A stretch of DNA of 64,000 nucleotides, taken from NCBI GenBank assembly GCA_017962365.1, contig JAGCVL010000006.1, forward strand, positions 769 through 64,768. The letters run 5' to 3'. The DNA is from Candidatus Saccharimonadota bacterium (GTDB lineage: Bacteria > Patescibacteriota > Saccharimonadia > Saccharimonadales > Saccharimonadaceae). Positions within the stretch are counted from its first letter, which is position 1. Each line of letters starts with the position of its first letter. The position numbers and the translations under genes were made by a program. The notes beneath the pieces were generated by a model. That model searched no databases and was not told where the DNA came from. It was given only the letters and a program-made list of their open reading frames with translations. Shown piece by piece: positions 13 through 48,368 of this stretch.

Positions 13-1380
13 TTGGCTGCAAAGCCTGGGACATGGGCTTTGATCTCGTGGGTGCTGGTGCTGGCGGCGCTGGTCTATGTCATGCATGACTGGTATCGTC
101 GTAGCGGAACGTTGCGGACGAGGAAGTACTGGCTTTCTTGGGTGCTATTCTTGACTGGGATGGTCCCCGGAGTGGTGGTATTTCTACTTGCTTCTGGCGA
201 GGTGTCCAATTCGGTGGTTTGGATGACCGCTAGTAAAATCTTGGTCGTGGAGATGCTTTGCATTTTCGGGATCCTGTTTATCCAGCGGAATATGGTTGCC
301 ACTAATGACCCTCGATGGAGGAAGGCGAAAGCGTACGCTATCTTTATTGCCATCCTGGTTGCTGTCGTGTTTATAATTGCGAATATTAACTGGGGTGGTA
401 CATCCGATAAGGTAGTCGTCCCGACCGAGGCTCAAGTCGTCCCGACCGAGGCTCAAGTCGTCCCGACCGAGACCCAACTCGCACCGACCGATGCGCAAGT
501 ATCGATTGGGGATGGGCGGGATCCCCGTTTCATCCAGGAGGAGATTCCCCACGAGAACTATCGATTTGTGGCGAATTTCTCTGAGCGTTTGAAAAAGAAC
601 TCAGGGGATACGACCGCGACGGTTCTTGAGGCGTCTGGTCACGATGCCGAGCTGCTTGCGATTTATGCGCGAGTGCTGGGCATTCGTGAAACCAGCCAGT
701 ATGGGGAACTTTTAACGCCGGACGGAACCTATCTAAGCGATGAGGGGATCATTCTCTATCATCAGCTGGAGGGGGTTCTTCTTAGTTGTGAAACGAAGAG
801 AATCGAGGTTCCATCGTCTGGAACAAATACCGGGTATAATAGCGGCCTGAATGTCGCTGAGGAGCCTGGTATTTCTGGAGATCGGAACGGAACGGAGTAT
901 ACCACTCTCTCCGGGGATGTGTTCTACATTCTGGATCGCTGTGGCAACTACGTTTATCCCACCGATCCGCCGGAAGATATCCCCGTTGGGCCCACCGACG
1001 AGGTCTATAACAAAGACCCTACCCTTGGCGTTAAGGTTGGCGGTGATGGAGAGTACCATGCGGACTCGCCAGGCACCAACACTAACGACGGCGTCGGGGC
1101 CACGAGTTCCGCGGCGGACTCTTCGACCAATTCGGGGAGTATGACTGTCACCGAGTATTCGGAGGCGATGGAGGAACACGAAGGAGTTTCTACCGGCCAG
1201 CAGGTTGGTGGCGATCCAAATACTTCGAGTACTCCGACGCCGACTGGTGCCAACGTCGACAATAATGGCGATAATGGCACTGGTAACGGTGGTATTGATG
1301 AACCGACTCCGACGACACCGCCGGAGTCGGAAATTGCAACTGACCCCGTGGGATCAGAGTGGGGAGGTCCCCCGGATTAG
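13..1380 (+). CDS. Hypothetical multi-pass membrane protein with a tandem-repeat linker and a Thr/Gly/Pro/Asn-rich C-terminus. The frame is open back to base 1, so it may be 5'-partial.
   Basis: The N-terminal ~130 aa contain about 4 hydrophobic helices. They are followed by the VVPTEAQ x3-4 repeat and then a low-complexity tail. The start is a TTG at 13 with no upstream stop in frame. Confidence 0.55.
   Translation: MAAKPGTWALISWVLVLAALVYVMHDWYRRSGTLRTRKYWLSWVLFLTGMVPGVVVFLLASGEVSNSVVWMTASKILVVEMLCIFGILFIQRNMVATNDPRWRKAKAYAIFIAILVAVVFIIANINWGGTSDKVVVPTEAQVVPTEAQVVPTETQLAPTDAQVSIGDGRDPRFIQEEIPHENYRFVANFSERLKKNSGDTTATVLEASGHDAELLAIYARVLGIRETSQYGELLTPDGTYLSDEGIILYHQLEGVLLSCETKRIEVPSSGTNTGYNSGLNVAEEPGISGDRNGTEYTTLSGDVFYILDRCGNYVYPTDPPEDIPVGPTDEVYNKDPTLGVKVGGDGEYHADSPGTNTNDGVGATSSAADSSTNSGSMTVTEYSEAMEEHEGVSTGQQVGGDPNTSSTPTPTGANVDNNGDNGTGNGGIDEPTPTTPPESEIATDPVGSEWGGPPD
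415..498 (+). repeat. 21-bp tandem repeat (gtcgtcccgaccgaggctcaa), two perfect copies plus two degenerate ones, in frame
   Basis: Read directly: copies at 415-435, 436-456, 457-477 and 478-498. They encode VVPTEAQ/VVPTETQ/LAPTDAQ. Confidence 0.9.
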
Positions 1381-6142: not shown

Positions 6143-6700
6143 ATGCATCACGACGAGACGTGGCAGATTTTTAAGCCGAACGGCGAATTAGTGGTTGATA
6201 GAGGGTGGGATTCGGCTTTGGGGAATCCGGAAGAGACTGGGTCTGATGCGATTGTTGGCGTAACGGTGGTGTTTTTGTATCGTCGAAATAAAAATGGCGA
6301 ACTGGAACTTTTGTGGCAGAAAAGGTCTGCGAAGGTTGACCGGTTTCCGGGAGATTATGATATTTCGGCGGGTGGTCATGTTAATTTTGGCGAAACATTG
6401 ACTGACGCGGCCATTAGGGAAGCATGGGAAGAAATTGGCGCGAAGGTTGATGTGGAGGATTTAAACTTTATAGCAGTGCGAGCTTTTGGTAAGAACCGTT
6501 TTGCATGGGTTTATTTGATAGATTGGACGGATCGGGCGGAAGATTTTTGTTTTAATGATGAGGAAGTTTCGGAAGTAAAGTGGGTGCCGTTTGCTGAAAC
6601 GGAAGAATTCCGAGAGAGGAATGCAAAAGCTCCGCTCAAAGAAGAAAAGCTGCTATTTGCAGCTATGGAAGAGTGGTTTTTGCGAAATGGATATCTATAA
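6143..6700 (+). CDS. NUDIX hydrolase
   Basis: It contains the Nudix box GGHVNFGETLTDAAIREAWEEIG and starts immediately after the recA stop. Confidence 0.8.
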   Translation: MHHDETWQIFKPNGELVVDRGWDSALGNPEETGSDAIVGVTVVFLYRRNKNGELELLWQKRSAKVDRFPGDYDISAGGHVNFGETLTDAAIREAWEEIGAKVDVEDLNFIAVRAFGKNRFAWVYLIDWTDRAEDFCFNDEEVSEVKWVPFAETEEFRERNAKAPLKEEKLLFAAMEEWFLRNGYL

Positions 6701-7466
6701 GATAAAGGATTTTAAAACGGCGAGCGGGGAGCTGGTTTTTGATTCTAAAGAGAATGATGATAAAAAAGTTGTCGGGCGTGGCAAGCTAATAATTACCGAG
6801 TTGAAGGCTGGCGTAAAGAATCCAGAACGAGTAAATGTATATATTAATGGGAAATTTTCCTTTTCGCTTGATATAGCGCAGGTGGTGGAATTTAAAATTA
6901 GGGTTGGTGCGGAAATTTCCGAAGAAAAATTGAGCGAGCTTAGGTCGGCATCGGATTTTGGGAAATTGTACCAGAGAACGCTTGAGTGGGTGCTTGTTCA
7001 GCCACGTTCAGTAAGGGAGGTGAGAGAATATCTTGCAAGAAAACTCAGGAATAGCCTTCGAGGACCTTCCGCGACTAACGAGGAGCGGTGGAGCGAAGTC
7101 CCGCCCGTAACGACGGGCCGGGACGAGCGCGTCCGAGGGGGCTATTCTGAGTTTTCTGACGAAATAATTTCACGTTTGCTTACTAAGGGATACCTGAATG
7201 ACAGGACTTTTGCGGAGTGGTATGTGGAAAATCGGTTTGTGAAGAAGGGGATTTCGAAAAAGAGATTAAAAATGGAGCTCATGAAGAAGGGGATATCGAA
7301 GGAAATTATCGACGAAGTGCTGGACGTGAGGAGTGACGAAGAAGAGATTGATAAAATGATTGCAAAAAAGCGAGCAAAATATGATGACGAAAAACTAATT
7401 CAATATCTGTGCCGGCAGGGTTTTTCGTACGATTTGGTGCGTGAAAAAGTGGCGGAGTTAAATTAA
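6687..7466 (+). CDS. recX: RecX-like regulatory protein with an extra N-terminal domain and a GC-rich in-frame insertion
   Basis: RecX-type helical repeats are present (VREVREYLARKL, ISRLLTKGYLNDRTFAEWYV, ELMKKGISKEIIDEVL, LIQYLCRQGFSYDLV). It lies in the recA neighbourhood. The start was moved to the ATG at 6687 (MDIYKIKD). Confidence 0.7.
   Translation: MDIYKIKDFKTASGELVFDSKENDDKKVVGRGKLIITELKAGVKNPERVNVYINGKFSFSLDIAQVVEFKIRVGAEISEEKLSELRSASDFGKLYQRTLEWVLVQPRSVREVREYLARKLRNSLRGPSATNEERWSEVPPVTTGRDERVRGGYSEFSDEIISRLLTKGYLNDRTFAEWYVENRFVKKGISKKRLKMELMKKGISKEIIDEVLDVRSDEEEIDKMIAKKRAKYDDEKLIQYLCRQGFSYDLVREKVAELN
7039..7158. repeat. GC-rich palindromic insertion element, in frame within recX
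   Basis: AT-rich inverted arms agaaaactcag(g)aatagcc (7039-7057) / ggctattctgagttttct (7141-7158). The GC-rich core contains the hairpin cccgt-aacg-acggg. The reverse complement of the core aligns with the der and truB copies. Confidence 0.8.
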
Positions 7467-8063: not shown

Positions 8064-8771
8064 TTATAGCACAGAAGCGTCTTTGATGTCGTATTTTCCA
8101 ACTTTGGTGCGGCGAAGAGCGGTGAGGTAGGCGCCGGTGCCGAGAGCTTTTCCGATATCTTCGGCGAGAGCTCTAATGTAAGTTCCGCTTGAGACTTCGC
8201 AACGGATTTTTAGTGTCGGATAGTTATATTCTAAAATTTCAATATTATAAATAGTGACTTCACGTGTCGGAGTTTCAAAATCTTTGCCAGCGCGAGCAAG
8301 CTTATAGGCTCTCTCGCCATTAATCTTTATGGCGCTGAAAGCTGGGACTTTTTGATTGATTTTACCAATAAAACTCTGGAGACAAGATTCAATTATATTC
8401 AGCTCGGGGCGCGTCGCTCGCTCCCGTCGCCACGGGGCTCGCGCGCTAATCCTCGCCTTGCCAGGCTCCGGACCCCCTTCGCTTGAATATAATTGAATCT
8501 CGCCTTCGGGGTCGCCGGTGGAGGAGGTGTAACCGAGTTTTAGCTCGGCGATGTATTCTTTGTCGAGCTTTAAGAATTCATTGGATTTTTTGGTCATTTT
8601 GCCAGTAAGGAGGATTAAAAGGCCGGTGGCGAAAGGATCGAGAGTGCCGGTGTGGCCGACTTTGACTTTGTGGCCGAGTTCGGTTTTTAAACGTCCGCGG
8701 ACTTTGGCGACGACGCCAAAGCTGGAAATGCCAGCGGGTTTATCAATAAGAATTATTTGATTTTCATCCAT
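8064..8771 (-). CDS. truB: tRNA pseudouridine(55) synthase carrying a GC-rich in-frame insertion
   Basis: LIDKPAGISSFGVV, the catalytic-Asp motif GHTGTLDPFATGLL and PAFSAIKINGERAYKLAR are present. The start was set at MDENQ (8771), because the longer ORF overlaps rpsO. Confidence 0.88.
   Translation of the reverse strand: MDENQIILIDKPAGISSFGVVAKVRGRLKTELGHKVKVGHTGTLDPFATGLLILLTGKMTKKSNEFLKLDKEYIAELKLGYTSSTGDPEGEIQLYSSEGGPEPGKARISARAPWRRERATRPELNIIESCLQSFIGKINQKVPAFSAIKINGERAYKLARAGKDFETPTREVTIYNIEILEYNYPTLKIRCEVSSGTYIRALAEDIGKALGTGAYLTALRRTKVGKYDIKDASVL
8385..8500. repeat. GC-rich palindromic insertion element, in frame within truB
   Basis: Perfect 17-bp inverted arms agattcaattatattca (8385-8401) / tgaatataattgaatct (8484-8500). 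The core gctcggggcgcgtc...cccgtcgccacggg...gcgctaat...gctccggacccccttcgc is about 80% identical to the der copy. Confidence 0.85.
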
Positions 8772-9527: not shown

Positions 9528-9611
9528 GAAAACAACATTAACAATAGAGAAGACGGCAGATATGGGGCAAGGGGCCTATACCTGAAGTTTTCTCTAAGAA
9601 AGGATATTTTC

Positions 9612-11789
9612 ATGGAAATTATAAACCCAATGGGCAAGAAGACTGTCCAAGTGTCTACCGATTGGCTGGGGCGGAAATTGACACTCGAGGTAAACCGAGT
9701 CGGGTTTAGGACGACTTCGTCGGTCCTAGTAACCTATGGCGATACCGTAGTACTCGGGAGCGTAGTTGTAGGGACGAAGCCGGTAGTGCAGGACTTTTTT
9801 CCATTATCAATTGACTACGAAGAGAAGTATTATGCGGCCGGTAAGATTTCGTCGTCGCGATTTATTAAGCGCGAGGGGAAACCGGCAGATGAGGCGGTGC
9901 TCGTAGGGCGGCTAATTGACCGACCGATTCGGCCACTTTTCCCGAAGGGCTATCGGCAGGAAGTACAGGTGGTCTGCACGGTGCTTTCGATGGACCCGAA
10001 TTTTAGGCCAGACTGCGTAGCGATGATTGCGGCAAGTGCGGCTTTGATGAATGCTGGTGTGCCATTTGATGGACCAGTGGCGGGGATTCGGATTGGGCGA
10101 ATTGGCGGAGAATTTAAGGGATTCCTAAGCCATGAAGAGCGAGAAATTTCACCGATGGATCTTGTGGTAGCTTGCAAAGACGGCAAGATTATGATGGTGG
10201 AAGCTGGTATGAAAGAAGTACCAGAAGAGACGATTATTGAAGCGATGCACTGGGCGGTGAAAAATGTCCAGCCAGCACTAGATTTGCAGAGGGAGCTTGC
10301 CAAGCTAGTGGCGGCGCCGGAGCAGGAATATGAATTAGTCTTGCCGGACGAAGCAGTGATTGAAGAGGTTGCTAAGTGGACCGAGGGGAAGTTTGGTTCA
10401 AAGATTCGTGGCAACGTGATGGAACGCGCGCATATTTTGGATGATATTAAATATGCAATGCATGATGAGTTTGCGCTTTCTAAGGGTGAGGGTGAGACTG
10501 ACAACGAAAAAGTTGCGTGGTATGATGAGAATTTGCGTGATGTGTATGACCAGGCGTTTGAGCTTGCGGTGTTTAAAGAAGTGCGTCGCGGTATTGTAGA
10601 AGAGGGTATACGTCCAGATGGACGAAAGCTGAACGAGGTGAGGCCTTTGTCGTCGCAGGTGTCGATTTTGCCGCGAGTACACGGGTCGTCGCTCTTTACG
10701 CGTGGTGTGACGCAGGCGATGAATATTGTAACATTGGCACCTTTGTCGTATGCACAGGAAGTGGATACGATGGAAGTGACTGATGGTAAGAGGCGCTATA
10801 TGCATCACTACAATGCGCCGTCATATACGGTGGGTGAGCCAGGTCGGATTGGGTCGCCTGGGCGACGTGAGATTGGGCATGGCTATCTTGCAGAGCGCGC
10901 ACTTTTGCCAGTTTTGCCATCTGAAGAAGAGTTCCCTTATGCGATTCGCTCGGTGACTGAGATTATGTCGCAAAATGGTTCTACTTCAATGGCAGCGACC
11001 TGCTCGTCTTGTATGGCTTTGATGGATGCTGGTGTGCCTCTCAAGCGGCCAGTGTCTGGCGTGGCGATGGGCCTCATGGTAGATGTGCCAAAAGGTACGC
11101 CGATTGAAACTTCGGACATTGATAAGGCATATGTATTGACGGATCTTATGGATGCAGAAGATTTTGCAGGTGATATGGACTTTAAGGTGACTGGTACGAC
11201 CGAGGGTGTGACGGCGCTTCAAATGGATATGAAAGTTCATGGTCTTCCGGTAGAAATCATGGAAAAGGCTTTGAAACAGTCGCATGAAGGTAGAATGTTT
11301 ATTCTTGATCATATCCTAAGTGTGATTCCGGAGCCGAAGAAGCAGATTTCGGAATATGCGCCGCGGATTGAAAAGTTGATGATCAATCCAGATAAGATTG
11401 GTGCGGTGATCGGTAAGGGTGGTGAGACGATTAACAAGATTACTTCAGAAACTGGTGCAGAAGTAAATATTGAAGACGACGGCCTCGTGACGATTTCTGG
11501 TAATGACCCGGAGAAGATTGCGAGAGCGCTAGAGTGGGTAAAATCTTTGACCGAGGAACCAGAAGTTGGGAAAGTTTACACTGGTACAGTGGTAACAATT
11601 AAAGATTTCGGGGCATTTGTAAATATTATGCCAGGGATTGATGGAATGCTTCATATCTCGCAAATCGTAGAGGGGAAGAGGCTAAAGAGCGTAGAAGAAG
11701 TACTCCACGTGGGCGATAAAGTAAAGGTGCGCCTAGTCGCTATTGACCACGGAAAGTTGTCGCTCAGTATGATTGGGGTGGAGCAATAA
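9612..11789 (+). CDS. pnp: Polyribonucleotide nucleotidyltransferase (PNPase)
   Basis: It has two RNase PH domains, a KH motif (IGKGGETINKI) and an S1 motif (GKVYTGTVVTIKDFGAFV). The start was trimmed to MEIINPMGKK. Confidence 0.95.
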   Translation: MEIINPMGKKTVQVSTDWLGRKLTLEVNRVGFRTTSSVLVTYGDTVVLGSVVVGTKPVVQDFFPLSIDYEEKYYAAGKISSSRFIKREGKPADEAVLVGRLIDRPIRPLFPKGYRQEVQVVCTVLSMDPNFRPDCVAMIAASAALMNAGVPFDGPVAGIRIGRIGGEFKGFLSHEEREISPMDLVVACKDGKIMMVEAGMKEVPEETIIEAMHWAVKNVQPALDLQRELAKLVAAPEQEYELVLPDEAVIEEVAKWTEGKFGSKIRGNVMERAHILDDIKYAMHDEFALSKGEGETDNEKVAWYDENLRDVYDQAFELAVFKEVRRGIVEEGIRPDGRKLNEVRPLSSQVSILPRVHGSSLFTRGVTQAMNIVTLAPLSYAQEVDTMEVTDGKRRYMHHYNAPSYTVGEPGRIGSPGRREIGHGYLAERALLPVLPSEEEFPYAIRSVTEIMSQNGSTSMAATCSSCMALMDAGVPLKRPVSGVAMGLMVDVPKGTPIETSDIDKAYVLTDLMDAEDFAGDMDFKVTGTTEGVTALQMDMKVHGLPVEIMEKALKQSHEGRMFILDHILSVIPEPKKQISEYAPRIEKLMINPDKIGAVIGKGGETINKITSETGAEVNIEDDGLVTISGNDPEKIARALEWVKSLTEEPEVGKVYTGTVVTIKDFGAFVNIMPGIDGMLHISQIVEGKRLKSVEEVLHVGDKVKVRLVAIDHGKLSLSMIGVEQ

Positions 11790-11844: not shown

Positions 11845-13692
11845 ATGGAAAAAATCCGGAATTTTTGTATTATTGCGCATATTGATCATGGGAAGTCGAC
11901 AATTGCTGATCGGATGATGGAGCTTACCGGTACGGTAGAAAAACGTGAGATGAAAGAACAGCTCCTAGACTCAATGGAGCTAGAGCGAGAAAAAGGTATC
12001 ACGATTAAACTGACACCGGTGACGATGAAATGGAAAGGGCATACACTGAACCTGATTGATACGCCGGGGCATGTGGATTTTTCGTACGAGGTATCGCGGT
12101 CGCTTCAGGCGGTAGAGTCAGCCGTATTAGTGGTAGATGCAACGCAAGGGATTCAGGCGCAGACGTTGGCAAATGTGTATCTTGCGATTGAGCAAGACCT
12201 CAAGATTATTCCAGTAATAAATAAAGTTGACTTGCCGGCGGCAGACGTGGAGGGCACGGCGGCGCAGATTATGAACTTGCTCGGATGTTCGCGCGAAGAA
12301 ATCATTGAGGCATCTGGTAAAACAGGATTCGGAGTAGATAAAATATTGGATGCGGTAATAAGTAGAGGGCCTGAACCAAGGGTTGTTTCTCGGGATGGGT
12401 CGCTTGGCCTCAGATCTTCCATTACTAAAGCATTGATATTTGATTCGTATTTTGATGATTATCGGGGGGTAGTGCTGTATGTGAGGATTTTTGAGGGGGA
12501 GATAGCGAAAAATGCAGAGATTTTAATGATGGCGGCGGGGACAAAGGGGCTGGCACTTGAAGTTGGGATTTTGACACCAAAGATGAAGTCGCAGGAGAAG
12601 CTAAGCGAGGGGCAGATTGGCTATATCGTGACGAATCTTAAGACCACGCGTGAGGCAAAAGTGGGTGATACAGTGACGTTAGCTAAGGGATTGGCGATAA
12701 AAAAGGATGAGGGCGGAACGGAAGTATTTGACACAAGTGGCAAAAAACTTGAGCCGCTACCTGGTTACAAAAATGTGTTGCCGTTTGTATATGCAGGTTT
12801 TTTCCCGGTGTCAAATGATCAGTATAAGGAATTAAAGGAGGCGATTGAAAAATTGTCGCTTTCGGATTCGGCGCTTCGGTATGAGCCGGAGAATTCACCG
12901 GTCTTAGGGTTTGGGCTTCGGATTGGATTTCTAGGTCTACTTCACATGGATATTATTAAGGAAAGGTTGGAACGGGAATTCGGATTAGATTTAATTGTGA
13001 CAAACCCGAGCACAAATTATGAAGTAGTGATGAATAATGGTGAGGTGCTAGAAATTAAATCCGCAGCGGATTTACCGGATGCGAGTGAAATTCGCGAGAT
13101 TCGGGAGCCGTGGGTAAAAGGTGAAATTATTGTACCGAAGCCAATGATTGGCAATGTACTAAATCTTATTAATGCTAAACGCGGGCATCAGACTAGCGTG
13201 TCATATATCGAAGAGCGAGCGGTGATTGATTTTGAAGCGCCGATGGCGAATCTTTTGACGGATTTTTATGACCAATTAAAATCGGCGACTAGTGGATACG
13301 CGTCGTTTAATTATGAATTAAATGGTTATCGGGCGGATGATTTGGTGCGGATAGATTTTCTGGTGGCTGGACACAAAATGGATGCACTTTCGGTGATGGC
13401 GCATCGGTCGGAGGCGGATGGAATTGGCCGCGAAGTGACAAAGAAATTAAAAGAAGTGATACCGCGTCAAAATTATGAAGTGGCTTTACAGGCGGCAATC
13501 GGGGCTAGGGTGATTGCGCGTGAGACGATTGGCGCGTATCGTAAGGATGTGACGGTAAAGATTCATACGGGCGACCGTGATAGAAAAGCGAAGTTGCTTG
13601 AAAAACAGAAGCGTGGTAAAGCGCGAATGAAGCGGTTTGGTAAAGTAGATATTCCGAGCGAAGCATTTACTGTAATGTTGAAACGTGATTAA
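11845..13692 (+). CDS. lepA: Translation elongation factor 4
   Basis: G motifs AHIDHGKST, DTPGHVDF and NKVDL are present, along with the LepA-specific C-terminus (KKLLEKQKRGKARMKRFGKVDIP). Confidence 0.95.
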   Translation: MEKIRNFCIIAHIDHGKSTIADRMMELTGTVEKREMKEQLLDSMELEREKGITIKLTPVTMKWKGHTLNLIDTPGHVDFSYEVSRSLQAVESAVLVVDATQGIQAQTLANVYLAIEQDLKIIPVINKVDLPAADVEGTAAQIMNLLGCSREEIIEASGKTGFGVDKILDAVISRGPEPRVVSRDGSLGLRSSITKALIFDSYFDDYRGVVLYVRIFEGEIAKNAEILMMAAGTKGLALEVGILTPKMKSQEKLSEGQIGYIVTNLKTTREAKVGDTVTLAKGLAIKKDEGGTEVFDTSGKKLEPLPGYKNVLPFVYAGFFPVSNDQYKELKEAIEKLSLSDSALRYEPENSPVLGFGLRIGFLGLLHMDIIKERLEREFGLDLIVTNPSTNYEVVMNNGEVLEIKSAADLPDASEIREIREPWVKGEIIVPKPMIGNVLNLINAKRGHQTSVSYIEERAVIDFEAPMANLLTDFYDQLKSATSGYASFNYELNGYRADDLVRIDFLVAGHKMDALSVMAHRSEADGIGREVTKKLKEVIPRQNYEVALQAAIGARVIARETIGAYRKDVTVKIHTGDRDRKAKLLEKQKRGKARMKRFGKVDIPSEAFTVMLKRD

Positions 13693-14807: not shown

Positions 14808-16736
14808 GTGGTAAGACAAAAGCCGAATGTGAACGTAAATGGCAGTGCCCTAAATGCTGGCAAATCCAATACCGTACGAAGTACGATGTTTTTCTTTATA
14901 ATGATTTTGTTTGCGGTGGCGATAGTAATAAATATGAACGGCAAAGGTACGGCTACAAAGACCGAGGTGCCAATTTCTGAAGTAATACAGCGCGCAAATG
15001 ATCCAGAAGGAAATATTGCAAAGATTACAGTTTCTGGTGATGCGCTCGAGATTACCTTGAAGGGCAAAGATGAGCCAACCGAGACATCACGAAAGGATGC
15101 ATCTGGGACTTTATATGATCAAGGTTTGAAGAATTATTGTGATGGCATGGATGGTGATGAGCTAGCTAAGTGTCAAGAGACTTATCCAGTGATTGAATAT
15201 AAAGAGGATGTAAATGTGTGGGGAGCGGTGCTCGATGTGGCGTTGACGGTGTTGCCGATTATTGCGATTGTGGTGTTTTTCTCTTGGATGATGCGGCAAG
15301 CAAATGCGGCAAGCGACAAGTCTTTGTCATTTGGTAAAGCGAGAGCGCAACTTTATGGTCCAGATAAAAAGAAAGTGACATTTAACGATGTGGCTGGTAA
15401 TGAAGCGGCGAAGCAGGACTTGACTGAAATTGTGGATTTTTTGAAAAATCCTAAAAAGTACGAAAAGTTGGGTGCAAAGATTCCGCGGGGAGTTTTACTG
15501 GCTGGTGACCCGGGTACTGGTAAAACTTTGATGGCGCGAGCAGTGGCTGGAGAAGCAAGTGTGCCATTCTTCTCGATTTCTGGTTCGGAATTTGCGGAGA
15601 TGTTTGTGGGTGTTGGTGCTTCGAGGGTGCGAGATTTGTTTTCCAAAGCCAAGAAAAATGCGCCGTCGATTATCTTTATTGATGAGATTGATGCGGTGGC
15701 ACACAAACGTGACGCGAGGGGCGGAGCTGGTCGCGAAGACGAACAGACTTTAAATCAGATTCTCGTGGAGATGGATGGGTTTGATAATGATTCTGGCGTG
15801 ATTGTGATGGCGGCGACAAACCGAGTTGATATGCTTGATAAGGCACTCTTGCGGCCGGGACGTTTTGACCGACATGTCAATGTGACTCTGCCGGAAAGGA
15901 AAGACCGATTGGAAATTTTGAAGGTGCATTTTAAGGGTAAGCCAGTAGAAGCGGATGTGGACCTTGAGGCGCTTGCGAAGAAAACAGCTGGGTCGAGTGG
16001 TGCGGATCTTGCAAACATTGCAAACGAGGCAGCGATTACGGCGGCGCGTGGTGGACACAAGGCGATATCGAATGCGGATCTGACGGAGGCGTTTGAGCGA
16101 GTGGCGATTGGGCCAGAGCGAAAGTCTAAAGTGATGAATGAAAAAGAGCGCAAGATTACGGCTTATCATGAGGCGGGACATGCGGTAGTGGGGCATGTAT
16201 TGCCGGATTCCGATCCAGTGCACAAGGTGACGATTATCCCGCGTGGTTCGACCGGTGGCGTGACGTGGTTTTTGCCACCAGAAGACAGAAGCTATAAAAA
16301 TATATATGAGTTGAAAGATATATTGGCGCGAGCGATGGGTGGACGCGTGGCTGAAAAGTTGATTTTCGGGACCGATGCGATTACGACTGGTGCGTCTTCG
16401 GATCTTAAGAATGTGGCTGAACTAGCAAAATCGATGATTGTGGAGGAAGGTATGGGCAAAGAGCTTCGTAACCAAGTATTCCCAAGCGAAGCGACTGGAT
16501 ATTATACGATTGCGACTTCGAAACCTTATTCCGAAAAGACTGCAGAAACGATTGATGCTGAAATTAAAGTATTAGCAGATGAAGCTGCAAAGCGGGCGGA
16601 AGAAGTTTTGAAAGCAAATAAGAAAGTATTAGATAAATTGGCAGAAGAATTACTTGCGCATGAGACTTTGGAAGAAAAAGAGCTAGAACCGATTTTGAAA
16701 GAAGCTAAATTACCAACGGTTGCTAAATTACATTAG
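14808..16736 (+). CDS. ftsH: ATP-dependent zinc metalloprotease FtsH
   Basis: Walker A GDPGTGKT, the AAA SRH region and zinc motif HEAGHAV are present. The GTG start has an AAGGAG SD 8 nt upstream. Confidence 0.95.
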
Positions 16737-16744
16737 GAGGTGCC

Positions 16745-19120
16745 ATGGAAAGGCTACTAAAATATTTTGAGCCAGAGAAATATATTTTGAACCTTAAAGT
16801 TGATAAACAACAAAAATATATTGGCGGCGAAGTTACGGTTTTTGGTGAAGCGAAAAATGAGCTTGTAAGATTTCACGCCGTGAATATGAAGATTAAAAAA
16901 GTCTTAGTGGATGATATTCAGACGAAATTTGAACATAAGGATGACTTATTAAATCTTAATATTAAGTTTTCAAAACATGATGATAAGTTTTTAAAACATA
17001 AGATTACGATTTTTTATGATGGGAATTTGAATGAAAATATGGAGGGGGCGTATTTGTCAACATATGAATATGATGGGCATGAAGAAAAAATTGTAGCGAC
17101 GCAGTTTGAGAGCCACTATGCGAGGGAAGCGTTTCCGTGCATTGATGAGCCGGCAGCAAAGGCAGTATTTGAAGTTTCTATCGCTGTGCCGGATGAAGAT
17201 GATATGGTGCTATCCAATATGCCGATGGGCGAGCCGACACCGCGGATGTCAACTTATCTACTAGCGTTTGTGGTGGGGAAGTTTCATGGGAAGACGGTGA
17301 CAAATAGTCATGGGGTGGAGATTACGACCTATTGTGCGCTTAATCAAGATGTGAACTCGGTGGACTTTGCAAATGAAATTGCGGCGCGGTCGCTCGAGTT
17401 TTATGATGATAATTTCGGTGTGTCATATCCGCTGAAAAAATGTGTACAGGTGGCGTTGCCGGATTTTGAAGCAGGGGCGATGGAGAACTGGGGGCTGGTG
17501 ACTTATCGGGAGTCGATGCTGCTTGCGGGGGAGTCGGCGACGATTGGTACGAAGAAAAGTGTGGCGCTCACGGTAGCACATGAGCTGTCGCATCAGTGGT
17601 TTGGCGATCTTGTGACGATGAAATGGTGGGATGATTTGTGGCTTAATGAATCGTTTGCGAGCGTGATGGAATATTTTGCCGTAGATGCGGTGCATCCGGA
17701 ATTTAAAATTTGGGAAGGATTTTTCACGGGCGATGCGCTAGCGGCGCTGAGGCGAGATTGTCTTTCTGGCGTGCAGTCGGTGCATCAGGATGTAAATGAC
17801 CCGGCGGAGATTGCAACGCTGTTTGATGGGGCAATTGTGTATGCAAAGGGGGCGAGACTAATGCTAATGTTGATTCGGCTGATGGGCTGGGATGATTTTT
17901 GCAGGGGACTTAAGAACTATTTTGAAAAATATCAGTATGGGAATACTTGCGGAGATGATTTGTGGGCAGCAATGCAACCATATGCGAAGTTTGATGTGGG
18001 CGAGATGATGCATGCGTTTATTGATCGACCTGGATATCCAGTAGTAAAGAATGAAGGTGTGGATTTTGATAAGATTTCACAGAAGAGATTTTTGCTGGAT
18101 GGGGAGATGGTAAAAACGGATTGGCCTTTGCCGGAGATTCGTGAAGACATGAGCGGGCATTATATCTTGCAATTGTCGGAAGCGGAGTTCAAAGAGAGAC
18201 TAGAAAGATTTGATGAGCTTGGGTTGGAAGAAAAATTACGGTTACTCATAGATAGAGACTTGTTGGCGCGAGCGCTTGAGGTGCCGTATGAATCACTTTT
18301 GCCATTGATTTTGAAATTCCGCAAAGAGTCGAATGCTGCAGTGTGGGATATTATTTTGACGATTGTGTCGGGAATGAAGATTTTCTTTGATGCGGGGTCT
18401 GAGGAAGAAAAAGAGTTTAAGAATTTTGTAGGCGAGTTGGTAGCTTTCAAGTTGAGCGAAATTGGGTTAAAGACGCGTGATGACGATGATGAAAATACGA
18501 TACGGCTGCGGTCTGTGCTTTTGGCGCTAGATTTTTATGCGGAAAAATTGGGTGACCTAGAAAAACTTGCTGGAATGTATAATGAGGATTATACGGCACT
18601 CGATGCGGAAATACGTGGTGACATACTTAGCGCGAAGATGTATTTGGAGCCAGATATGTATGATAAGTATTTGGAAGATTACGAGAAGATGGCCGATCCG
18701 GAGATTAAGTTCGAGCTACTATTTGCTATGACTTTGTCACATGATAGTGGGGTGCTGACAAAAACAATGAAGCTACTTCGTCAAATCGAAATAGTAAAAC
18801 CGCAAGACCAATTGTATCTTTTTGTGTGGCTTTATCGTAACCCGATTATTAAAAAACAAGTGTTTGAGTGGTTGACGCAAAATTGGGAATTTGTTGAAGG
18901 TTTGGCTGGTGATAAATCGATCGAAAGTTATCCTAGATATACGGCAAGCGGTGTGAGGACGGAAACAGAATATGATGCGTGGCATGAATTCTTTGAGCCA
19001 ATGAGTAAAAATCCGGCACTTTCGCGGGCGATTGAAGTTGGTGAAAATGAAATTAGGGCAAGGCTAAGGCTGATTCAGAAAAATCAAGTCGCCATACACA
19101 ATGCGCTTAAAAAATTTTAA
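16745..19120 (+). CDS. pepN: M1-family aminopeptidase N
   Basis: GAMENWG is present, together with HELSHQWFG...WLNESFA (HEXXH-18-E). Confidence 0.85.
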   Translation: MERLLKYFEPEKYILNLKVDKQQKYIGGEVTVFGEAKNELVRFHAVNMKIKKVLVDDIQTKFEHKDDLLNLNIKFSKHDDKFLKHKITIFYDGNLNENMEGAYLSTYEYDGHEEKIVATQFESHYAREAFPCIDEPAAKAVFEVSIAVPDEDDMVLSNMPMGEPTPRMSTYLLAFVVGKFHGKTVTNSHGVEITTYCALNQDVNSVDFANEIAARSLEFYDDNFGVSYPLKKCVQVALPDFEAGAMENWGLVTYRESMLLAGESATIGTKKSVALTVAHELSHQWFGDLVTMKWWDDLWLNESFASVMEYFAVDAVHPEFKIWEGFFTGDALAALRRDCLSGVQSVHQDVNDPAEIATLFDGAIVYAKGARLMLMLIRLMGWDDFCRGLKNYFEKYQYGNTCGDDLWAAMQPYAKFDVGEMMHAFIDRPGYPVVKNEGVDFDKISQKRFLLDGEMVKTDWPLPEIREDMSGHYILQLSEAEFKERLERFDELGLEEKLRLLIDRDLLARALEVPYESLLPLILKFRKESNAAVWDIILTIVSGMKIFFDAGSEEEKEFKNFVGELVAFKLSEIGLKTRDDDDENTIRLRSVLLALDFYAEKLGDLEKLAGMYNEDYTALDAEIRGDILSAKMYLEPDMYDKYLEDYEKMADPEIKFELLFAMTLSHDSGVLTKTMKLLRQIEIVKPQDQLYLFVWLYRNPIIKKQVFEWLTQNWEFVEGLAGDKSIESYPRYTASGVRTETEYDAWHEFFEPMSKNPALSRAIEVGENEIRARLRLIQKNQVAIHNALKKF

Positions 19121-41022: not shown

Positions 41023-42447
41023 ATGAAAAAATTACCAATAGTAGCATTGATTGGCCAGACGAATGCGGGGAAATCTTCGCTTCTTAATCGGATGGCGCGG
41101 AAAAATATTGCGATTGTAGCGAGGGAAGAGGGTACGACGCGCGATAACGTGATGGCGACGATCGATGATGCTTTTATTTTGGTAGATACGGCTGGTCTTA
41201 AAGACCCAACGGATGATTTTGAGGCGTCGATTCAGGATCAGATTCAGGATGCGATAGAAGCGGCGGATGTGATATTGGTGGCACTAGATTCTACGAAGTA
41301 TTTCGATCATCGTGATAAGAAAATTACAAAAGATGCTTTGAAATCTGGGAAACCAGTGTTTTTGGTTCTTAATAAATGTGATCTCGGCGAGTCGTTGCCG
41401 ATTGAGGAGTTTAGGGCTCTTGGTATAGCGCCAGAAAATATTTTTTATACTTCGGCAACAACGGGTGTCGGGATTAAGGAACTCAAAGCTGGGGTTCTGG
41501 CAGATATTTCTCGCTCGGGGGCGCGTCCGGCCGGCCCGTCGCCACGGGCGGCCGGCGCTAATACTCGCGCTGCCGCGCTCCGTACCCCCCTTCGCCAAGA
41601 AATATCTACCACTCCCGCTCTGAAGATTGCTTTGATTGGGCGGCCGAATGTGGGGAAGTCGTCATTATTTAATACGCTTGGCAAAAAGCAGCAGGCGATT
41701 GTGTCGAGTCGGCAAGGTACGACGCGGGATGTCAATCGGGTGACGGTGAAATATAAAGGTCGGGAGATTGAGATTTTGGATACAGCTGGACTTCGGAAAC
41801 CAGGCAAACGTGAGGTGGGGATTGAAAAGTTTTCAGCAATACGGACACTTGCGGCGATTGAGGAAGCGGATATTTGTTGCCTTTTGGTGGATTCGACCGA
41901 GCCACATTCGAAACTTGACCAGTCGCTCGCGGGACAAATTGTGGAAGCCGGGAAGGGAATTATGATGATTGTGACGAAGGCGGATTTACTTGAAAATGCC
42001 GAACCGACGAATTTTTATGGTGAAGAGAATATTGGCAATCGGACGGCGGCGGATTTCTTGCTAGACGCCCTCGAAAAGGATTATGATTTCTTGCCGTATG
42101 CGCCAGTGATACTTACAAGCTCGGAGACCGGGATGAATGCGACAAGGATTTTTGAAATGGCGCTTGAGATTGACGCGGCGCGGCATATGGAAGTAAAGAC
42201 TTCGGAGCTAAATAAGATTTTGAATGATGCGATTGTTGCTCACGCGCCGGCAGGTCTAAAAGATACTCGTCCGAAGCCGAAATATATCGTGCAGACCGAT
42301 ACTTGTCCACCGTGGTTTGTGGTGCATGGACACGAACTTGGGCTTCTTCACTGGTCGTGGAAGCGGTATTTGGAGCGAAAAATTCGGGAAAAGTACCCAT
42401 TTATTGGTACGCCAATCATGTTTTCATACCGTTCAGATGATAAATAG
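41023..42447 (+). CDS. der: Ribosome-associated GTPase Der/EngA with a GC-rich insertion in the inter-G-domain linker
   Basis: It has two G domains (GQTNAGKSS / DTAG; GRPNVGKSS / DTAG) and a KH-like C-terminus. Confidence 0.92.
   Translation: MKKLPIVALIGQTNAGKSSLLNRMARKNIAIVAREEGTTRDNVMATIDDAFILVDTAGLKDPTDDFEASIQDQIQDAIEAADVILVALDSTKYFDHRDKKITKDALKSGKPVFLVLNKCDLGESLPIEEFRALGIAPENIFYTSATTGVGIKELKAGVLADISRSGARPAGPSPRAAGANTRAAALRTPLRQEISTTPALKIALIGRPNVGKSSLFNTLGKKQQAIVSSRQGTTRDVNRVTVKYKGREIEILDTAGLRKPGKREVGIEKFSAIRTLAAIEEADICCLLVDSTEPHSKLDQSLAGQIVEAGKGIMMIVTKADLLENAEPTNFYGEENIGNRTAADFLLDALEKDYDFLPYAPVILTSSETGMNATRIFEMALEIDAARHMEVKTSELNKILNDAIVAHAPAGLKDTRPKPKYIVQTDTCPPWFVVHGHELGLLHWSWKRYLERKIREKYPFIGTPIMFSYRSDDK
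41498..41611. repeat. GC-rich palindromic insertion element, in frame within der (best-preserved copy)
   Basis: Inverted arms tggcagatatttct (41498-41511) / agaaatatctacca (41598-41611). The 87-nt core is about 80% G+C by hand count. Internal hairpins are ccggccggcccgt-cgcc-acgggcggccgg and gcgc-taatactc-gcgc. Confidence 0.85.
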
Positions 42448-45123: not shown

Positions 45124-46050
45124 ATGTCAACACTTTTTTCATACTTTTTTGAAAAAATCAACCAAATTGCACCCCTGGAGAGTGATTTTACAGAGGTGTT
45201 AGAGTCCATTGCGGTTAAGCCTAAAACATTGTATTATTATGGAAAAATGCCAGAAAATGTGGTAAAAAATGGGGTTTTAACGCGGCCGAAGACGGTGGCG
45301 ATTGTGGGGTCGAGGCATAATACGAAATATGGGGAGGAAGTGGCATATAAATTAGGGTATGGACTGGGAAAACGAGGTGTAGTGGTGGTGTCGGGGCTAG
45401 CTTTTGGGATTGACTCAATTGGGCATCGGGGGTGTCTGGATGCAGGTGGGGTGACGGTGGCAGTTCTGGGGACGAGGATAGACAAGATTTATCCGAAGGC
45501 GCACACGGCGCTCGCAAAGGAGATTATAGAGAAGGGTGGGGTGGTGATGAGTGAATATGGCATATCTGACAATCTGGTCGCGAAAGTGAGTTTTTTAGAG
45601 AGAAATCGGATTATCGCGGGGCTAGCTGACGTGGTGGTGATAGTGGAGGCGGCGGAGCAGTCGGGGTCCCTCAATACGGCGGCGCATGCTTTGGCACAGG
45701 GGCGGGAGGTGTTTGCAGTGCCGGGGAATATTACGAGTCCGTATTCCAGGGGGTGCAATAAGCTGATTTCTCAGGGTGCGATTCCGTATACTGAGCCAGA
45801 TGATGTACTAAGAGTGCTTTTTCCGGAGGAGTTTTTGAAGAAGCGGAAGAAGCTAAAGCAGATGGATTTATTTGGGGATACAGATGCCGAGACAGCGGTG
45901 CTTACGGCGATGGCGGCGGGCATGAGGAGTGGGGATGACATTATGAAGTGTGCGCTTTTGCCACCAGAAGTGTTTAATCAGGCGATTACGATGCTCGAGA
46001 TAAAGGGGCGGGTGAGGGCGCTTTCGATGAACAATTGGAGTTTGGCGTAA
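45124..46050 (+). CDS. dprA: DNA-processing protein DprA/Smf
   Basis: VAIVGSRHNTKYG, SGLAFGIDSIGHRG and QSGSLNTA are present. The ATG at 45124 follows a CAGGAGA SD. Confidence 0.85.
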   Translation: MSTLFSYFFEKINQIAPLESDFTEVLESIAVKPKTLYYYGKMPENVVKNGVLTRPKTVAIVGSRHNTKYGEEVAYKLGYGLGKRGVVVVSGLAFGIDSIGHRGCLDAGGVTVAVLGTRIDKIYPKAHTALAKEIIEKGGVVMSEYGISDNLVAKVSFLERNRIIAGLADVVVIVEAAEQSGSLNTAAHALAQGREVFAVPGNITSPYSRGCNKLISQGAIPYTEPDDVLRVLFPEEFLKKRKKLKQMDLFGDTDAETAVLTAMAAGMRSGDDIMKCALLPPEVFNQAITMLEIKGRVRALSMNNWSLA

Positions 46051-46100: not shown

Positions 46101-48368
46101 ATGGCTAAGAATTTGGTAATAGTAGAGAGCCCGGCGAAGGCGCATACGATCGAGAAGTATCTCGGGTCGGATTTTAAGGTGCTGGCGAGTGTGGGGCATA
46201 TTCGGAAAGATACGAAGGTTGATAAAAATACTTTTGATGTGACATATGAGATTGATCCGGGGCATAAGTCTATTATTACGGAGCTAAAGCGTGAGGTGAA
46301 GGCGGCGGACAAGATATGGCTCGCGACGGATGAAGACCGTGAGGGTGAGTCGATTTCGTGGCATCTTTTGGAGGTGCTAGGGTTGCCTGGGGATACGGCG
46401 CGGATTACTTTTCATGAGATTACGAAGCCGGCGCTTGAGGCGGCAATCCTAAATCCTAGAGCGGTTGATATGAATATGGTATCTTCGCAGCAGGCGAGGC
46501 AGACGCTTGATATGCTGGTGGGGTATGATTTGTCGGACATAGTGCGACGAAAGGTGCCGGGGGCGATTTCGGCGGGGCGGGTGCAGTCGCCGGCGCTGAG
46601 GCTCGTAGTGGAGCGAGAAAAAGAGATTGAGAAGTTTGAGAGTAAGTTTAGTTTTAAGATTTCTGGTGAGTTTATATCGGGTGCGAGTTCGATTTTCTTA
46701 GCTTCCTATGATGGAAAAGCGCCGGAAAACGAGGATGACGTAAAAGATTTACTCGCAAAACTGTCAAATGAAGAATTTACGGTGATGGATGTTGAGGAGG
46801 CGGAGGGGGTGAAGCCGAATCCGGTGCCGTTTACTACGGCGGCGCTTCAGATTGAGGCAAATGCGAAGCTTGGGTTTTCGTCGCGGACGACGATGAGCGC
46901 GGCACAGGGGCTTTATCAAGCCGGGTTGATTACATATCATAGGACAGATTCTTTGAATTTGTCTTCGCAGGCAGTGGCGGCGATGGCTGGATATATCAAA
47001 GCAAATTTTAGTGAGCAATATTTGAAGACAAGGCATTTTAAGACGAAGGATGCTTCGGCGCAAGAGGCACATGAGGCGATTCGTCCGACGGATATTACAC
47101 GGACGGCGGCTGGTAAGAATGATTTTGAGAAGAGGCTTTATCAGTTGATTTGGGCGCGGACGCTGGCGACCCAGATGGCAAATGCCAAGGTGGCGAAGAC
47201 GATGATTCGCTTGAGTCATGATTTCGTGGCGAAGGGCGAAGTGGTGGTGTTTGACGGTTTTTTGAAAGTTTATGGGAAGAGTAAGGATTTGGAGCTTCCG
47301 AGAGTAGCTAAAGGCGACGAAATGGAGTGCTTGAAGCTAACCGCGAAGCAGACTTTTGCGAAACCACCAGCAAGATATACCGAGGGGTCACTAGTGAAGA
47401 AGCTCGAGGAGCTCGGTATTGGACGGCCATCTACGTATGCCTCGATTATGACGGCGATTCAGGCGCGAAATTATGTAGAAAAGGGTGAGTCGGAAGGCTC
47501 TGAGCGCGAAGTGGTAGAGTTTGTGGCGGAAAAAGGCAATGTAGAGCGAACTTTGGTGAAAGAAAAATTTGGCGCGAATAAAGGAAAATTGATGCCGACG
47601 CCGATTGGCGAGTTGGTGTCTGGATTCCTCACGGATAATTTTAAAAATATTGTGGATTATAAATTTACGGCAAATATTGAGAAAGATTTGGACCTCGTGG
47701 CAGCAGCGAAGCTGGAACGGGTGAAGATGTTGAAAGATTTTTATGGGCCATTTCGCGATACGGTACTAACGGCAAATGGAGTAGAAAGATACAATAACGC
47801 TCGGCTACTTGGTCATCATCCTGAAAATGGCAAGCCGATTTATGCGAAAGTTGGAAAGACTGGCGGATTTATCCAGCTAGGCGACAATGAAAAAGAGGCG
47901 GGCGAGAAGCCGCAATTTGCGCCACTTCCAAAACGAAAATCTGCGAAGACGGTGACCCTGGAGCAGGCTTTGAAGCAGCTGGCTCTACCTGCACTTCCGA
48001 GAAATCTCGGCAAGGCTCCGGATGGGGCGGAGATTATCGCGGCGAATGGGCCGTTTGGGCCGTATCTTAAAGGTGGTAAATATAATATACCAATTAAGGA
48101 TTTTGACCCATATACGATAAGTTTGGAAGAGGCGCTACCGCTTTATCAGAAAAAAGTGGATTCGATGATTGCGGACTGGGGCGAAGTGCAGATTATTAAT
48201 GGTGCGTATGGGCCATACGTGAAAGGTCCTGGACGGCGCAATAATGTAAAAATTCCAAAAGATGTAGATCCAAAGACCGTGACTGAGGCACAGGCACGGG
48301 AAATGTTAGCAAATAAACCAAAAACAGCTTCGAAAACGAGGCGGGGAGCGAGAGGTAAACGAAAATGA
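46101..48368 (+). CDS. topA: DNA topoisomerase I
   Basis: It has the Toprim motifs LVIVESPAKA and ATDEDREGE and the catalytic Tyr region ITYHRTDS. The basic C-terminus lacks obvious Cys4 zinc ribbons. Confidence 0.95.
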   Translation: MAKNLVIVESPAKAHTIEKYLGSDFKVLASVGHIRKDTKVDKNTFDVTYEIDPGHKSIITELKREVKAADKIWLATDEDREGESISWHLLEVLGLPGDTARITFHEITKPALEAAILNPRAVDMNMVSSQQARQTLDMLVGYDLSDIVRRKVPGAISAGRVQSPALRLVVEREKEIEKFESKFSFKISGEFISGASSIFLASYDGKAPENEDDVKDLLAKLSNEEFTVMDVEEAEGVKPNPVPFTTAALQIEANAKLGFSSRTTMSAAQGLYQAGLITYHRTDSLNLSSQAVAAMAGYIKANFSEQYLKTRHFKTKDASAQEAHEAIRPTDITRTAAGKNDFEKRLYQLIWARTLATQMANAKVAKTMIRLSHDFVAKGEVVVFDGFLKVYGKSKDLELPRVAKGDEMECLKLTAKQTFAKPPARYTEGSLVKKLEELGIGRPSTYASIMTAIQARNYVEKGESEGSEREVVEFVAEKGNVERTLVKEKFGANKGKLMPTPIGELVSGFLTDNFKNIVDYKFTANIEKDLDLVAAAKLERVKMLKDFYGPFRDTVLTANGVERYNNARLLGHHPENGKPIYAKVGKTGGFIQLGDNEKEAGEKPQFAPLPKRKSAKTVTLEQALKQLALPALPRNLGKAPDGAEIIAANGPFGPYLKGGKYNIPIKDFDPYTISLEEALPLYQKKVDSMIADWGEVQIINGAYGPYVKGPGRRNNVKIPKDVDPKTVTEAQAREMLANKPKTASKTRRGARGKRK

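Follow-up and report, generated by a model that had tools for sequence, protein, structure and literature searches.

What is a GC-rich palindrome doing, in frame, in the middle of a protein-coding gene? The question is raised by recX in a 64,000-nucleotide (nt) stretch of DNA from a Candidatus Saccharimonadota bacterium (GenBank assembly GCA_017962365.1, contig JAGCVL010000006.1, positions 769 to 64,768 of the forward strand), which is referred to here as the window and supplies all coordinates that are not preceded by a locus label. The Saccharibacteria, members of the Candidate Phyla Radiation, have reduced genomes and live as ultra-small episymbionts. The recX block is probably a resident copy of a dispersed, non-autonomous mobile DNA element that is tolerated through read-through translation, in the manner of the Rickettsia palindromic elements (RPEs). 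The analysis establishes that the block belongs to a family whose copies are dispersed, are present at a site in some genomes and absent from it in others, occur in both orientations and in all six frames, and preserve the open reading frame (ORF) of the host gene. It likewise establishes that the family is constrained at the nucleotide level, that covariation extends to all of its helices, and that identical cores are found between unrelated arms in different genes.

A structured insert in recX

The host gene occupies positions 6687-7466 on the plus strand and encodes a protein of 259 amino acids (aa) that starts with MDIYK. It is identified by its ORF, by Pfam matches to RecX_HTH1, RecX_HTH2 and RecX_HTH3 and by NCBIfam RecX models, and the protein is 100% identical to the NCBI entry 'RecX family transcriptional regulator [Candidatus Saccharibacteria bacterium]'. 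The whole element, comprising an outer stem and a core, lies at 7038-7157 on the plus strand, as delimited by a covariance model and by folding, and its 120 nt are read in frame as 40 codons; the initial annotation, which had placed it at 7039-7158, was right about the element and 1 nt off in its coordinates. The 5′ arm of the outer stem (7038-7059, plus strand; fold and inverted repeats I1/I2) encodes RKLRNSL and has G7049 bulged, and the 3′ arm (7137-7157, plus strand) encodes GGYSEFS and pairs with it through a helix that includes two G-U pairs on the plus strand. The arms of about 18 bp with one bulge that had been described earlier, AGAAAACTCAG(G)AATAGCC at 7038-7057 and GGCTATTCTGAGTTTTCT at 7140-7157, are present within this longer stem; as a feature of the family they do not hold, being specific to the recX site. 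The GC-rich core (7060-7136, plus strand) is assigned as a three-way junction from its fold, its alignment to the model, and covariation of the P2 and P3 helices across 201 copies. In the minimum-energy fold of the plus strand, inner P1 pairs 7062-7065 with 7131-7134, P2 is a hairpin at 7069-7088, and P3 is a hairpin at 7093-7130 with an apical CCCGU-AACG-ACGGG at 7104-7117 and a bulged C at 7118.

The energy of the fold is -72.6 kcal/mol for the plus strand of the copy (z = -7.1; none of 200 shuffles did as well) and -59.3 kcal/mol for the minus strand, and the GC content of the block is 0.66-0.72 as against a window mean of 0.45. The reverse complement of the core does carry the family hairpin that had been proposed for it, CCGGCCCGTCGTTACGGGCGG being the reverse complement of 7100-7120. 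The motif CCCGTCGYYACGGG has five matches in the window, both strands counted, against 0.49 expected, and all are at the recX, truB and der sites.

At the protein level the element encodes NSLRGPSATNEERWSEVPPVTTGRDERVRGGYS, and the recX ORF runs through it without a stop or frameshift. The insert splits the first three-helix domain of RecX, since the Pfam RecX_HTH1 match covers only residues 104-119 (profile positions 11-26) and HTH2 begins at residue 171; the earlier suggestion that a peptide is added in frame inside the first helical region is thereby borne out. In an AlphaFold2 model made with the RecX alignment, the predicted local distance difference test (pLDDT) score falls below 50 at residues 126-151, which are encoded by the core, and confident helices at 109-124 and 150-167, which take in the arm-encoded residues, flank this stretch. 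The core-encoded loop is thus predicted to be disordered. RecX and TruB family profiles align on either side of the inserts in these proteins and skip them.

A family dispersed through housekeeping genes

Direct comparison of the recX block with the rest of the window gave little: blastn returned the der copy at 74.5% identity over 51 nt (E 1e-3) and nothing at truB, and a three-way MAFFT alignment of the recX, truB and der copies had a mean column identity of 66%, in keeping with the divergence that had been noted by eye. Because this pairwise evidence is thin, relatives were collected and a family model was used. A RecX-alignment scan of one-genome-per-species contigs yielded 80 loci of at most 20 kb each (designated by L numbers below), and clustering of the GC-rich islands in these loci and the window placed all three window copies in one family of 87. 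A covariance model, R1, was then built from 47 copies with all window copies and all recX-site copies excluded. On the window R1 gives exactly three significant matches, with filters on or off. The truB copy (8378-8505, minus strand, sense to truB) scores 99.3 bits (E 8.2e-23) and folds at -71.7 kcal/mol (z = -8.65); the der (engA) copy (41490-41617, minus strand, antisense to der) scores 81.3 bits (E 3.3e-18) and folds at -75.6 kcal/mol; and the recX copy, the third and weakest, is matched at 7035-7162 on the plus strand over the full model length (1-129) with 66.2 bits and E 2.3e-14. The resemblance therefore exceeds that of shuffled GC-rich sequence, because a model that contains no window or recX-site copy matches the recX copy; it is this match, and not pairwise alignment alone, that carries the point.

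The kinship of the recX element with the truB and der copies and its opposite orientation, both of which had been read from the letters of the window, are thus upheld. The further suggestion of an older insertion or a subfamily is better taken in its second form. The recX copy has a P2 of the CGCGACNAACG...GAGCG type and not of the GCCUGGCAAGGC or GCGCGGCAGCGC type, which marks a distinct subfamily, its core is 86% identical to that of a copy of the same subfamily at L021:18209, the closest match outside recX, and several subfamilies occur at the recX site itself. Other GC-rich islands of the window (395-540, 1020-1155, 45590-45750, 46500-46650, 52000-52170 and 58120-58260) are not family members in the R1 search. 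At 409-500 there is a GC-rich stretch with three to four copies of a tandem repeat of about 21 nt, gtcgtcccgaccgaggctcaa, unrelated to the hairpin family.

In 1.41 Mb of genome loci R1 detects 105 copies, and in 0.5 Mb of metagenome contigs that were retrieved with a 23-nt core pattern it detects at least 96, the metagenome totals here and below being those among the matches listed; across 1.9 Mb of Saccharibacteria DNA the family thus has at least 201 members. Of the 201 listed, 181 are enclosed by uninterrupted ORFs that span 100 or more codons, and these ORFs fall into at least 31 clusters of unrelated housekeeping genes. By eye, and not by tool annotation, we take them to include recX, truB, lepA, der, obg, valS, argS, pheT, mnmA, miaA, tsaD, gatB, folD, murB, gyrA, polA, dnaX, dnaG, a UvrD-like helicase, ftsK and others. 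Orientation to the host gene is sense in 47 of the 105 copies in genome loci and antisense in 49. The copies whose frame was counted occupy all six frames (sense 21/6/6, antisense 12/8/13). By composition only about half of the frame and orientation combinations are stop-free. Selection for read-through translation is indicated, since the ORFs are nearly always kept when half of the combinations are stop-free and one length in three is in frame. The effect is that dozens of housekeeping proteins, among them RecX, TruB, LepA, Der, Obg, GyrA, PolA and aminoacyl-tRNA synthetases, are inflated and diversified by low-complexity loops, which can mislead alignment, phylogeny, structure prediction and quality checks on metagenome-assembled genomes (MAGs).

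These census data bear on the idea of a loss at the RNA level, through excision as a mini-intron whose arms hold the exons together or through ribosomal bypassing, so that the protein would lack the insert. The covarying pairing of one flank with the other does resemble an exon-docking stem, and the truB arms code for residues like those of the host, with a net gain close to the length of the core. We nevertheless regard this as very unlikely: an ORF that stays open through the core in nine-tenths of the listed copies speaks for selection on read-through, half of the copies are antisense to their host gene, no ribozyme or intron family is matched, and the peptides differ with the frame, which leaves no intein motifs.

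The 20 listed copies outside ORFs are intergenic, and in eight cases the site is the tip of a conserved pnp leader stem; no rRNA or other RNA gene carrying an insertion was seen near these copies. A scan of IMG/VR viral contigs gave no family copy and hence no support for carriage by phages. The MAGs from which the related loci derive come from rumen and gut and are labelled Saccharibacteria or Candidatus Nanosyncoccus, the host phylum being Saccharimonadota. Five loci (L042, L057, L062, L072 and L073) have Saccharibacteria gene content and family copies and are titled 'Clostridiales bacterium', 'Bulleidia sp.' or 'bacterium', which are probably binning or labelling errors. Single genes with two family copies at different positions were seen in L167 (an Obg-like ORF), L127 (ArgS-like) and L113 (MnmA-like); in the first of these the two inserts read SSEGHPQ(S/L)LRGRSEEPREDG(S/R)DERPEEE.

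Secondary structure and covariation

All copies have a common layout of about 125 nt, in which a GC-rich core of about 72 nt (72 ± 3) is enclosed by an AT-rich outer stem of 20-25 bp that is 85-94% paired. The inner stem is short and semi-conserved (UUUY GAGGRC ... GYCC GA RAAA). P2 exists in at least six variants with compensatory changes. The apex of P3 is invariant (CCCGU-RRMG-ACGGG with a bulged C) and its lower stem covaries freely (CCGGCC/GGCCGG, GCUCGC/GCGAGC and others). At recX the minimum-energy fold is the three-way junction of the family, which is seen in 82 copies. Across the alignment, 88.8% of cells are paired in the genome set and 85.4% in the metagenome set, as compared with 61% and 58% after column shuffles and with 39-45% and 37-48% in slid controls, and 39 of the 42 pairs are changed on both sides in each of the two independent sets. 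The outer helix is paired in 94% of cases in the genome set and 90-91% in the metagenome set, with all four Watson-Crick types at most positions, and the two helices that flank the core (helices 1-2) are 89-94% paired in the genome set. Pair counts taken from alignments fitted to a model lean toward the structure; the conclusion of covariation is nevertheless safe, because the contrast with the controls is large and is replicated in the second set. RNAalifold applied to a plain MAFFT alignment recovered P3 alone and was replaced by mapping of a representative fold followed by realignment with Infernal.

One strand of the element is favoured. The strand defined by the core has the better fold in 79 of 82 copies, and on that strand G-U pairs exceed A-C pairs in the arms, with ratios in the genome set of 32:20 for sense, 43:7 for antisense and 13:1 for intergenic copies, and in the metagenome set of 50:35, 30:14 and 10:9, respectively (90:58 in total). 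The excess is about 2:1 overall, a figure that alignment to the model may inflate. Since it is independent of the direction of the host gene, the constraint would act on the element's own strand, as single-stranded DNA (ssDNA) or as a transcript of its own, and not on the host mRNA.

Such data invite the reading that the element is a functional structured RNA (or ssDNA) module that is kept by the host and whose dispersal is secondary, in which case a three-way junction clamped by a perfect duplex of about 22 bp could be a signal for processing or stability, such as an RNase III-type site, or could constitute a small RNA that is made independently. Very strong covariation in every helix, site-specific arms included, nucleotide-level conservation of fourfold-degenerate sites (see below), and the strand preference in both folding energy and G-U over A-C pairs are what this would lead one to expect; many structured RNAs have optional extra hairpins at loop tips, as some copies do, and one of the sites is the tip of the conserved pnp leader stem, the E. 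coli pnp leader being a regulatory hairpin processed by RNase III. We consider such a module rather unlikely all the same. Sites are empty in many related species and nothing replaces the element there; Rfam 15 has no match in the window at the gathering score and none even at E <= 1 on two loci that hold five copies; neither promoter nor terminator is evident within the 125 nt; essential coding regions are an odd location for a regulatory RNA; and no single role at the mRNA level fits, because the orientation relative to the host gene is random in the genome loci.

Some copies are themselves interrupted. A nested GC-rich module of 33-36 nt or about 72 nt, with hairpins of its own, lies exactly in the apical loop of P3 at L002:15366-15566, L002:11630-11796, L048:170-329, L053:11524-11685, L066:19438-19600 and L026:4775-4934 and at the recX sites of L001 and L076; the copy at L041:20395 is extended in P2 instead. 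The nested module may be a separate loop-targeting element or may represent optional domains of the same element.

A common core between site-specific arms

The two parts of the element have different histories. Between copies in different genes identity is 0.68 in the core and 0.32 in the outer arms (0.27 when shuffled), and between copies within one gene the values are 0.70 and 0.49. When each copy is compared with its nearest partner in another gene, the mean is 0.89 for cores and about 0.33 for arms, and in several cross-gene pairs, such as truB of L029/L030 and lepA of L081, the cores are 100% identical over 73 nt and the arms 20%. In the 114 cross-gene pairs with a core identity of at least 93%, only the inner 8-12 bp of the stem are held in common. 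Because near-identical cores thus carry unrelated arms, the unit that spreads, or is converted, would be the core with short inverted ends, and the outer stem would belong to the site: its outer 15 bp are unrelated between genes, and the 6-10 bp adjoining the core are semi-conserved. Transport of the arms from a donor site is unsupported, given how little of the stem the 114 pairs share, and so is copying of the arms from nearby sequence, a third arm copy being found nearby in 14 of 198 cases, mostly by chance. Each site hosts four to six core subfamilies, and within-genome homogenisation of cores was not seen, identity being 0.677 on the same contig and 0.677 on different contigs.

Turnover at the recX site

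Empty sites are known at recX, truB, lepA and the pnp leader, and arms-only remnants in recX of L015 and L035 and in truB of L005 and L021. At recX the distance between the anchors LEWxLxxPR and NRFxKKG of orthologues defines the classes. Empty sites (KKVFEKKLDKNYIDLI) have 63 aa between the anchors and are found in 15 loci, sites with one element have 88-90 aa and are found in about 35, arms alone or arms with a stub give 60-69 aa (L015, L035 and L080), and nested double insertions give longer distances (L001, L024, L026 and L076). Filled sites encode at least six types of peptide. Type B is the reverse complement of type A, and C that of D (from hand translation, confirmed by the model strands), and E and F represent further core subfamilies. 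Orthologues of every core type at recX have in common the outer arm AGAAARCTCA / TGAGTTTTCT, and the inner arm depends on the type and always pairs. Judging by its sequence, the L035 remnant looks like a slippage deletion between two CCTC repeats.

The closest comparison is with L081, which is 95-96% identical to the window over 17 kb. Its recX core is in the opposite orientation with 70% identity, its inner arm differs, and about 50 nt downstream are diverged. A simple inversion in place is ruled out by these three features, namely the 70% identity of the reversed core, the different inner arm and the diverged downstream bases; the low core identity and the downstream divergence argue instead for allele replacement by recombination. 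The same two genomes differ at lepA, where L081 has a full 128-nt copy (16699-16827; 115 bits) and the window is 63 nt shorter, in frame, and retains a 65-nt remnant at 12357-12421 on the plus strand that consists of the arms CTGAACCAAG and CTTGGCCTCAG and a stub of the core.

Conservation within the core is at the nucleotide rather than the peptide level. When five type A recX copies are compared, the identities at the three codon positions are 0.72/0.71/0.66 for the core, with 0.68 at fourfold-degenerate sites, and 0.70/0.83/0.41 for the recX flanks, with 0.34 at fourfold-degenerate sites. With so flat a profile in the core, apparent conservation of the peptide is a by-product of nucleotide conservation or of recent replacement. 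This bears on the proposal of an adaptive insert, in which selection would favour the amino-acid sequence of a RecX loop peculiar to the lineage and the palindromy would be incidental. The type A peptide, RGPSATNEERxSEVxPVTTGRxERVRE, does look well conserved among RecX orthologues; the flat profile and the conserved fourfold-degenerate sites, the occurrence at the same site of the reverse complement and of other subfamilies, which encode unrelated peptides, the presence of the same core in about 30 unrelated proteins in six frames, and the predicted disorder of the loop (pLDDT < 50) together make the proposal scarcely credible.

The same position of RecX carries a different insert in L040, L044, L046, L048, L049, L050, L061, L063, L068, L069 and L075, which is rich in K and E, 22-40 residues long (KRSKYKKEMEERKKEWQ...), 33-54% GC and without a hairpin. 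Either it was inserted independently or it is what remains of a fully decayed element, and as a family member it was set aside, being unstructured and with no tie to the family found.

Empty and filled alleles at other sites

At truB, empty alleles read EIKAYS-NKK-PELEEIES, have the length and motifs of TruB in other bacteria, and do not fold (-1 to -5 kcal/mol), and filled alleles read EIQLYS-[25 aa]-PELNIIES, a net gain of 22 aa; the arms overlay host residues, which have been rewritten so as to be complementary. The net gain is 29 aa in lepA and 25-27 aa in recX, below the 42 codons of the whole hairpin. The truB insert of L059 (about 11586-11778) is duplicated or nested, with 91 aa between anchors and the arm AGATTCAATCACACT again 65 nt away.

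In the pnp leader, the conserved stem GAGAAGACGGCAGATAT...ATACCTGAAGTTTTCTC lies upstream of pnp (9547-9600 in the window), and its empty state is a hairpin tip of 19-22 nt, found in 22 loci including the window. Filled alleles are longer by 105-125 nt and include new outer arms that differ between species, and arm-only palindromes of 30-41 nt are also present. A full family copy occupies the tip in at least eight species, and in others there is an element about 100 nt long that escapes the model; loci noted for this leader are L002, L003, L014, L021, L040, L042, L059, L080 and others. Pre-existing hairpins as the targets of insertion are ruled out for truB by the folding energies of its empty alleles; the idea holds for the pnp leader tip. 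We conclude that the outer stem forms at the site during or after insertion and is then actively kept paired, either through selection or through correction templated within the hairpin, a process of mutation that quasi-palindromes are known to undergo.

Proposed spread and persistence of the element

If the recX block is a resident copy of a mobile element, the spreading unit would be the 72 ± 3-nt core with 6-10 bp of its own inverted ends (UUUY-GAGGRC ... GYCC-GA-RAAA), folding on one defined strand into the three-way junction. After insertion the site would gain and retain its own AT-rich outer stem of 20-25 bp. Copies that leave the host frame open would survive; transcription and translation would pass through them and add some 25-30 residues as a disordered loop, which in RecX would lie between helices 2 and 3 of the first three-helix domain. 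An occupied site could later have its core inverted, lost by slippage so that arms remain, swapped for another subfamily or invaded by a second small module, and homologous recombination would shuffle the alleles between strains. Spread may proceed via a single-stranded hairpin intermediate made by an enzyme acting in trans, and the arms may be maintained by templated correction within the hairpin, by selection, or by both.

Several observations weigh against this reading. Neither a transposase nor a parent element nor a target-site duplication was found in neighbourhoods of about 20 kb, the flanks of the core being inverted and not direct repeats. No transposition event was seen between near-identical genomes, since the two differences that separate the window from L081 have diverged flanks and represent replaced alleles, not clean insertions. 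The origin of the arms differs by site, as an overlay of host residues at truB versus a net addition in the pnp leader. The lasting pairing of site-specific arms is unexpected for a purely selfish, dead insertion and points to a constraint, as does the excess of G-U over A-C pairs even in antisense copies (43:7 and 30:14), a point that is weaker in the second set as a whole (90:58).

A more speculative possibility, which we put forward tentatively and hold to be improbable as things stand, is a new kind of mobile cassette: a core some 72 nt long, folded as a single strand, would shuttle between hairpin docks peculiar to each site, with neither conserved terminal repeats nor target duplications. 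Each dock would be the outer stem embedded in the host. The process that installs, flips, ejects and replaces cores, whether a structure-specific enzyme working on one strand of DNA or synthesis templated by the hairpin itself, would also make the dock and keep it complementary, and the stem would outlast the loss of a core and then be re-used. If true, this would account for identical cores with unrelated arms, for the presence at a single site of several subfamilies and of both orientations, for alleles with arms alone, for nesting at the tips of loops and for the strand-specific G-U excess. A tolerated mobile element remains the reading that we prefer. The family offers a concrete system for the study of hairpin-directed recombination or templated maintenance of palindromes.

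Comparison with known systems

Full-text literature searches returned nothing on such elements in Saccharibacteria, TM7 or Patescibacteria, and the family, which has no Rfam or NCBIfam match and for which no paper was found, is so far undescribed. At E <= 1 in NCBIfam the three inserted peptides match nothing and the whole RecX and TruB proteins match only RecX and TruB models; NCBIfam holds models of RPE domains. Pfam likewise finds only RecX domains in RecX, and neither database shows a sequence relationship of the inserts to RPEs.

By analogy of behaviour, the closest counterparts appear to be the RPEs together with the intragenic repetitive extragenic palindromic (REP) sequences of Rickettsia conorii and Opitutus terrae. 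RPEs, which lack both a gene of their own and a known transposase, are palindromic repeats some 100-150 bp long in a small reduced genome; they lie in frame in many unrelated housekeeping genes and are apparently tolerated as an extra surface peptide (PMC10969869, PMC3733652). The Saccharibacteria family shares this in-frame placement of a palindromic repeat in housekeeping genes unrelated to one another. It differs from RPEs, each of which is described as coding for a conserved peptide (PMC10969869), in that it uses six frames, has a conserved internal GC-rich three-way junction and a long terminal stem that differs at every site, accommodates different subfamilies and orientations at one site, and belongs to the phylum Saccharimonadota.

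Intragenic REPs are GC-rich stem-loops within coding regions, DNA-repair genes included, that add 20-30 residues; they include GTAG- and CGTC-tagged kinds and REP dimers, with examples in Opitutus terrae and, as RPE-4 and RPE-6, in R. conorii, and the CGTC REPs have no dedicated transposase (PMC3733652). REPs are single hairpins of 20-40 bp with a stem of 8-13 bp and a conserved terminal tetranucleotide and tail. The class, with its conserved GTAG or CGTC head, lies mostly outside genes and goes together with a RAYT gene in the genome. The apical hairpin of the Saccharibacteria element, which reads CCCGTCG..ACGGG on one strand, recalls the CGTC kind. The element differs from REPs and from REP doublets forming hairpins (REPINs) in its length of about 125 nt, its three helices, the lack of a terminal tag, its non-conserved outer stem and its intragenic location in 90% of cases.

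Bacterial MITEs (transposable elements of the miniature inverted-repeat kind) such as Correia, ERIC, RUP and Nezha are small, non-autonomous, multi-copy and foldable, and sometimes form intragenic in-frame fusions (PMC10969869). MITEs are defined by the conserved terminal inverted repeats of a parent insertion sequence (IS) and by target-site duplications, neither of which applies here: only 6-10 bp beside the core are conserved, and the immediate flanks are inverted complements and not direct repeats. No parent IS was seen in the neighbourhoods of about 20 kb, and the ORFs beside the 20 copies outside ORFs are ordinary neighbours (pnp and others).

More distant parallels exist in other genomes. 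Yeast mitochondrial GC clusters and the 'byp' elements of Magnusiomyces are mobile GC-rich palindromes of about 30-60 nt in an AT-richer genome that can sit in coding genes, byps being skipped by the ribosome. The Saccharibacteria element, in contrast, is longer, leaves the ORF open throughout and belongs to a different domain of life. The attC sites of integrons are recombination substrates set by the fold of one strand and are imperfect palindromes that differ between copies; they combine a variable centre with conserved terminal boxes, whereas the element described here has the reverse arrangement and no cassette gene.

A conserved core within a maintained, covarying, site-specific stem, together with turnover of subfamilies at fixed sites, goes beyond described schemes of transposition. 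In-frame palindromic repeats in essential genes have had essentially one textbook example, that of Rickettsia. The Saccharibacteria family is a second, unrelated and far more structured one, and suggests that tolerance of parasites in coding sequence recurs in small, slowly evolving genomes.

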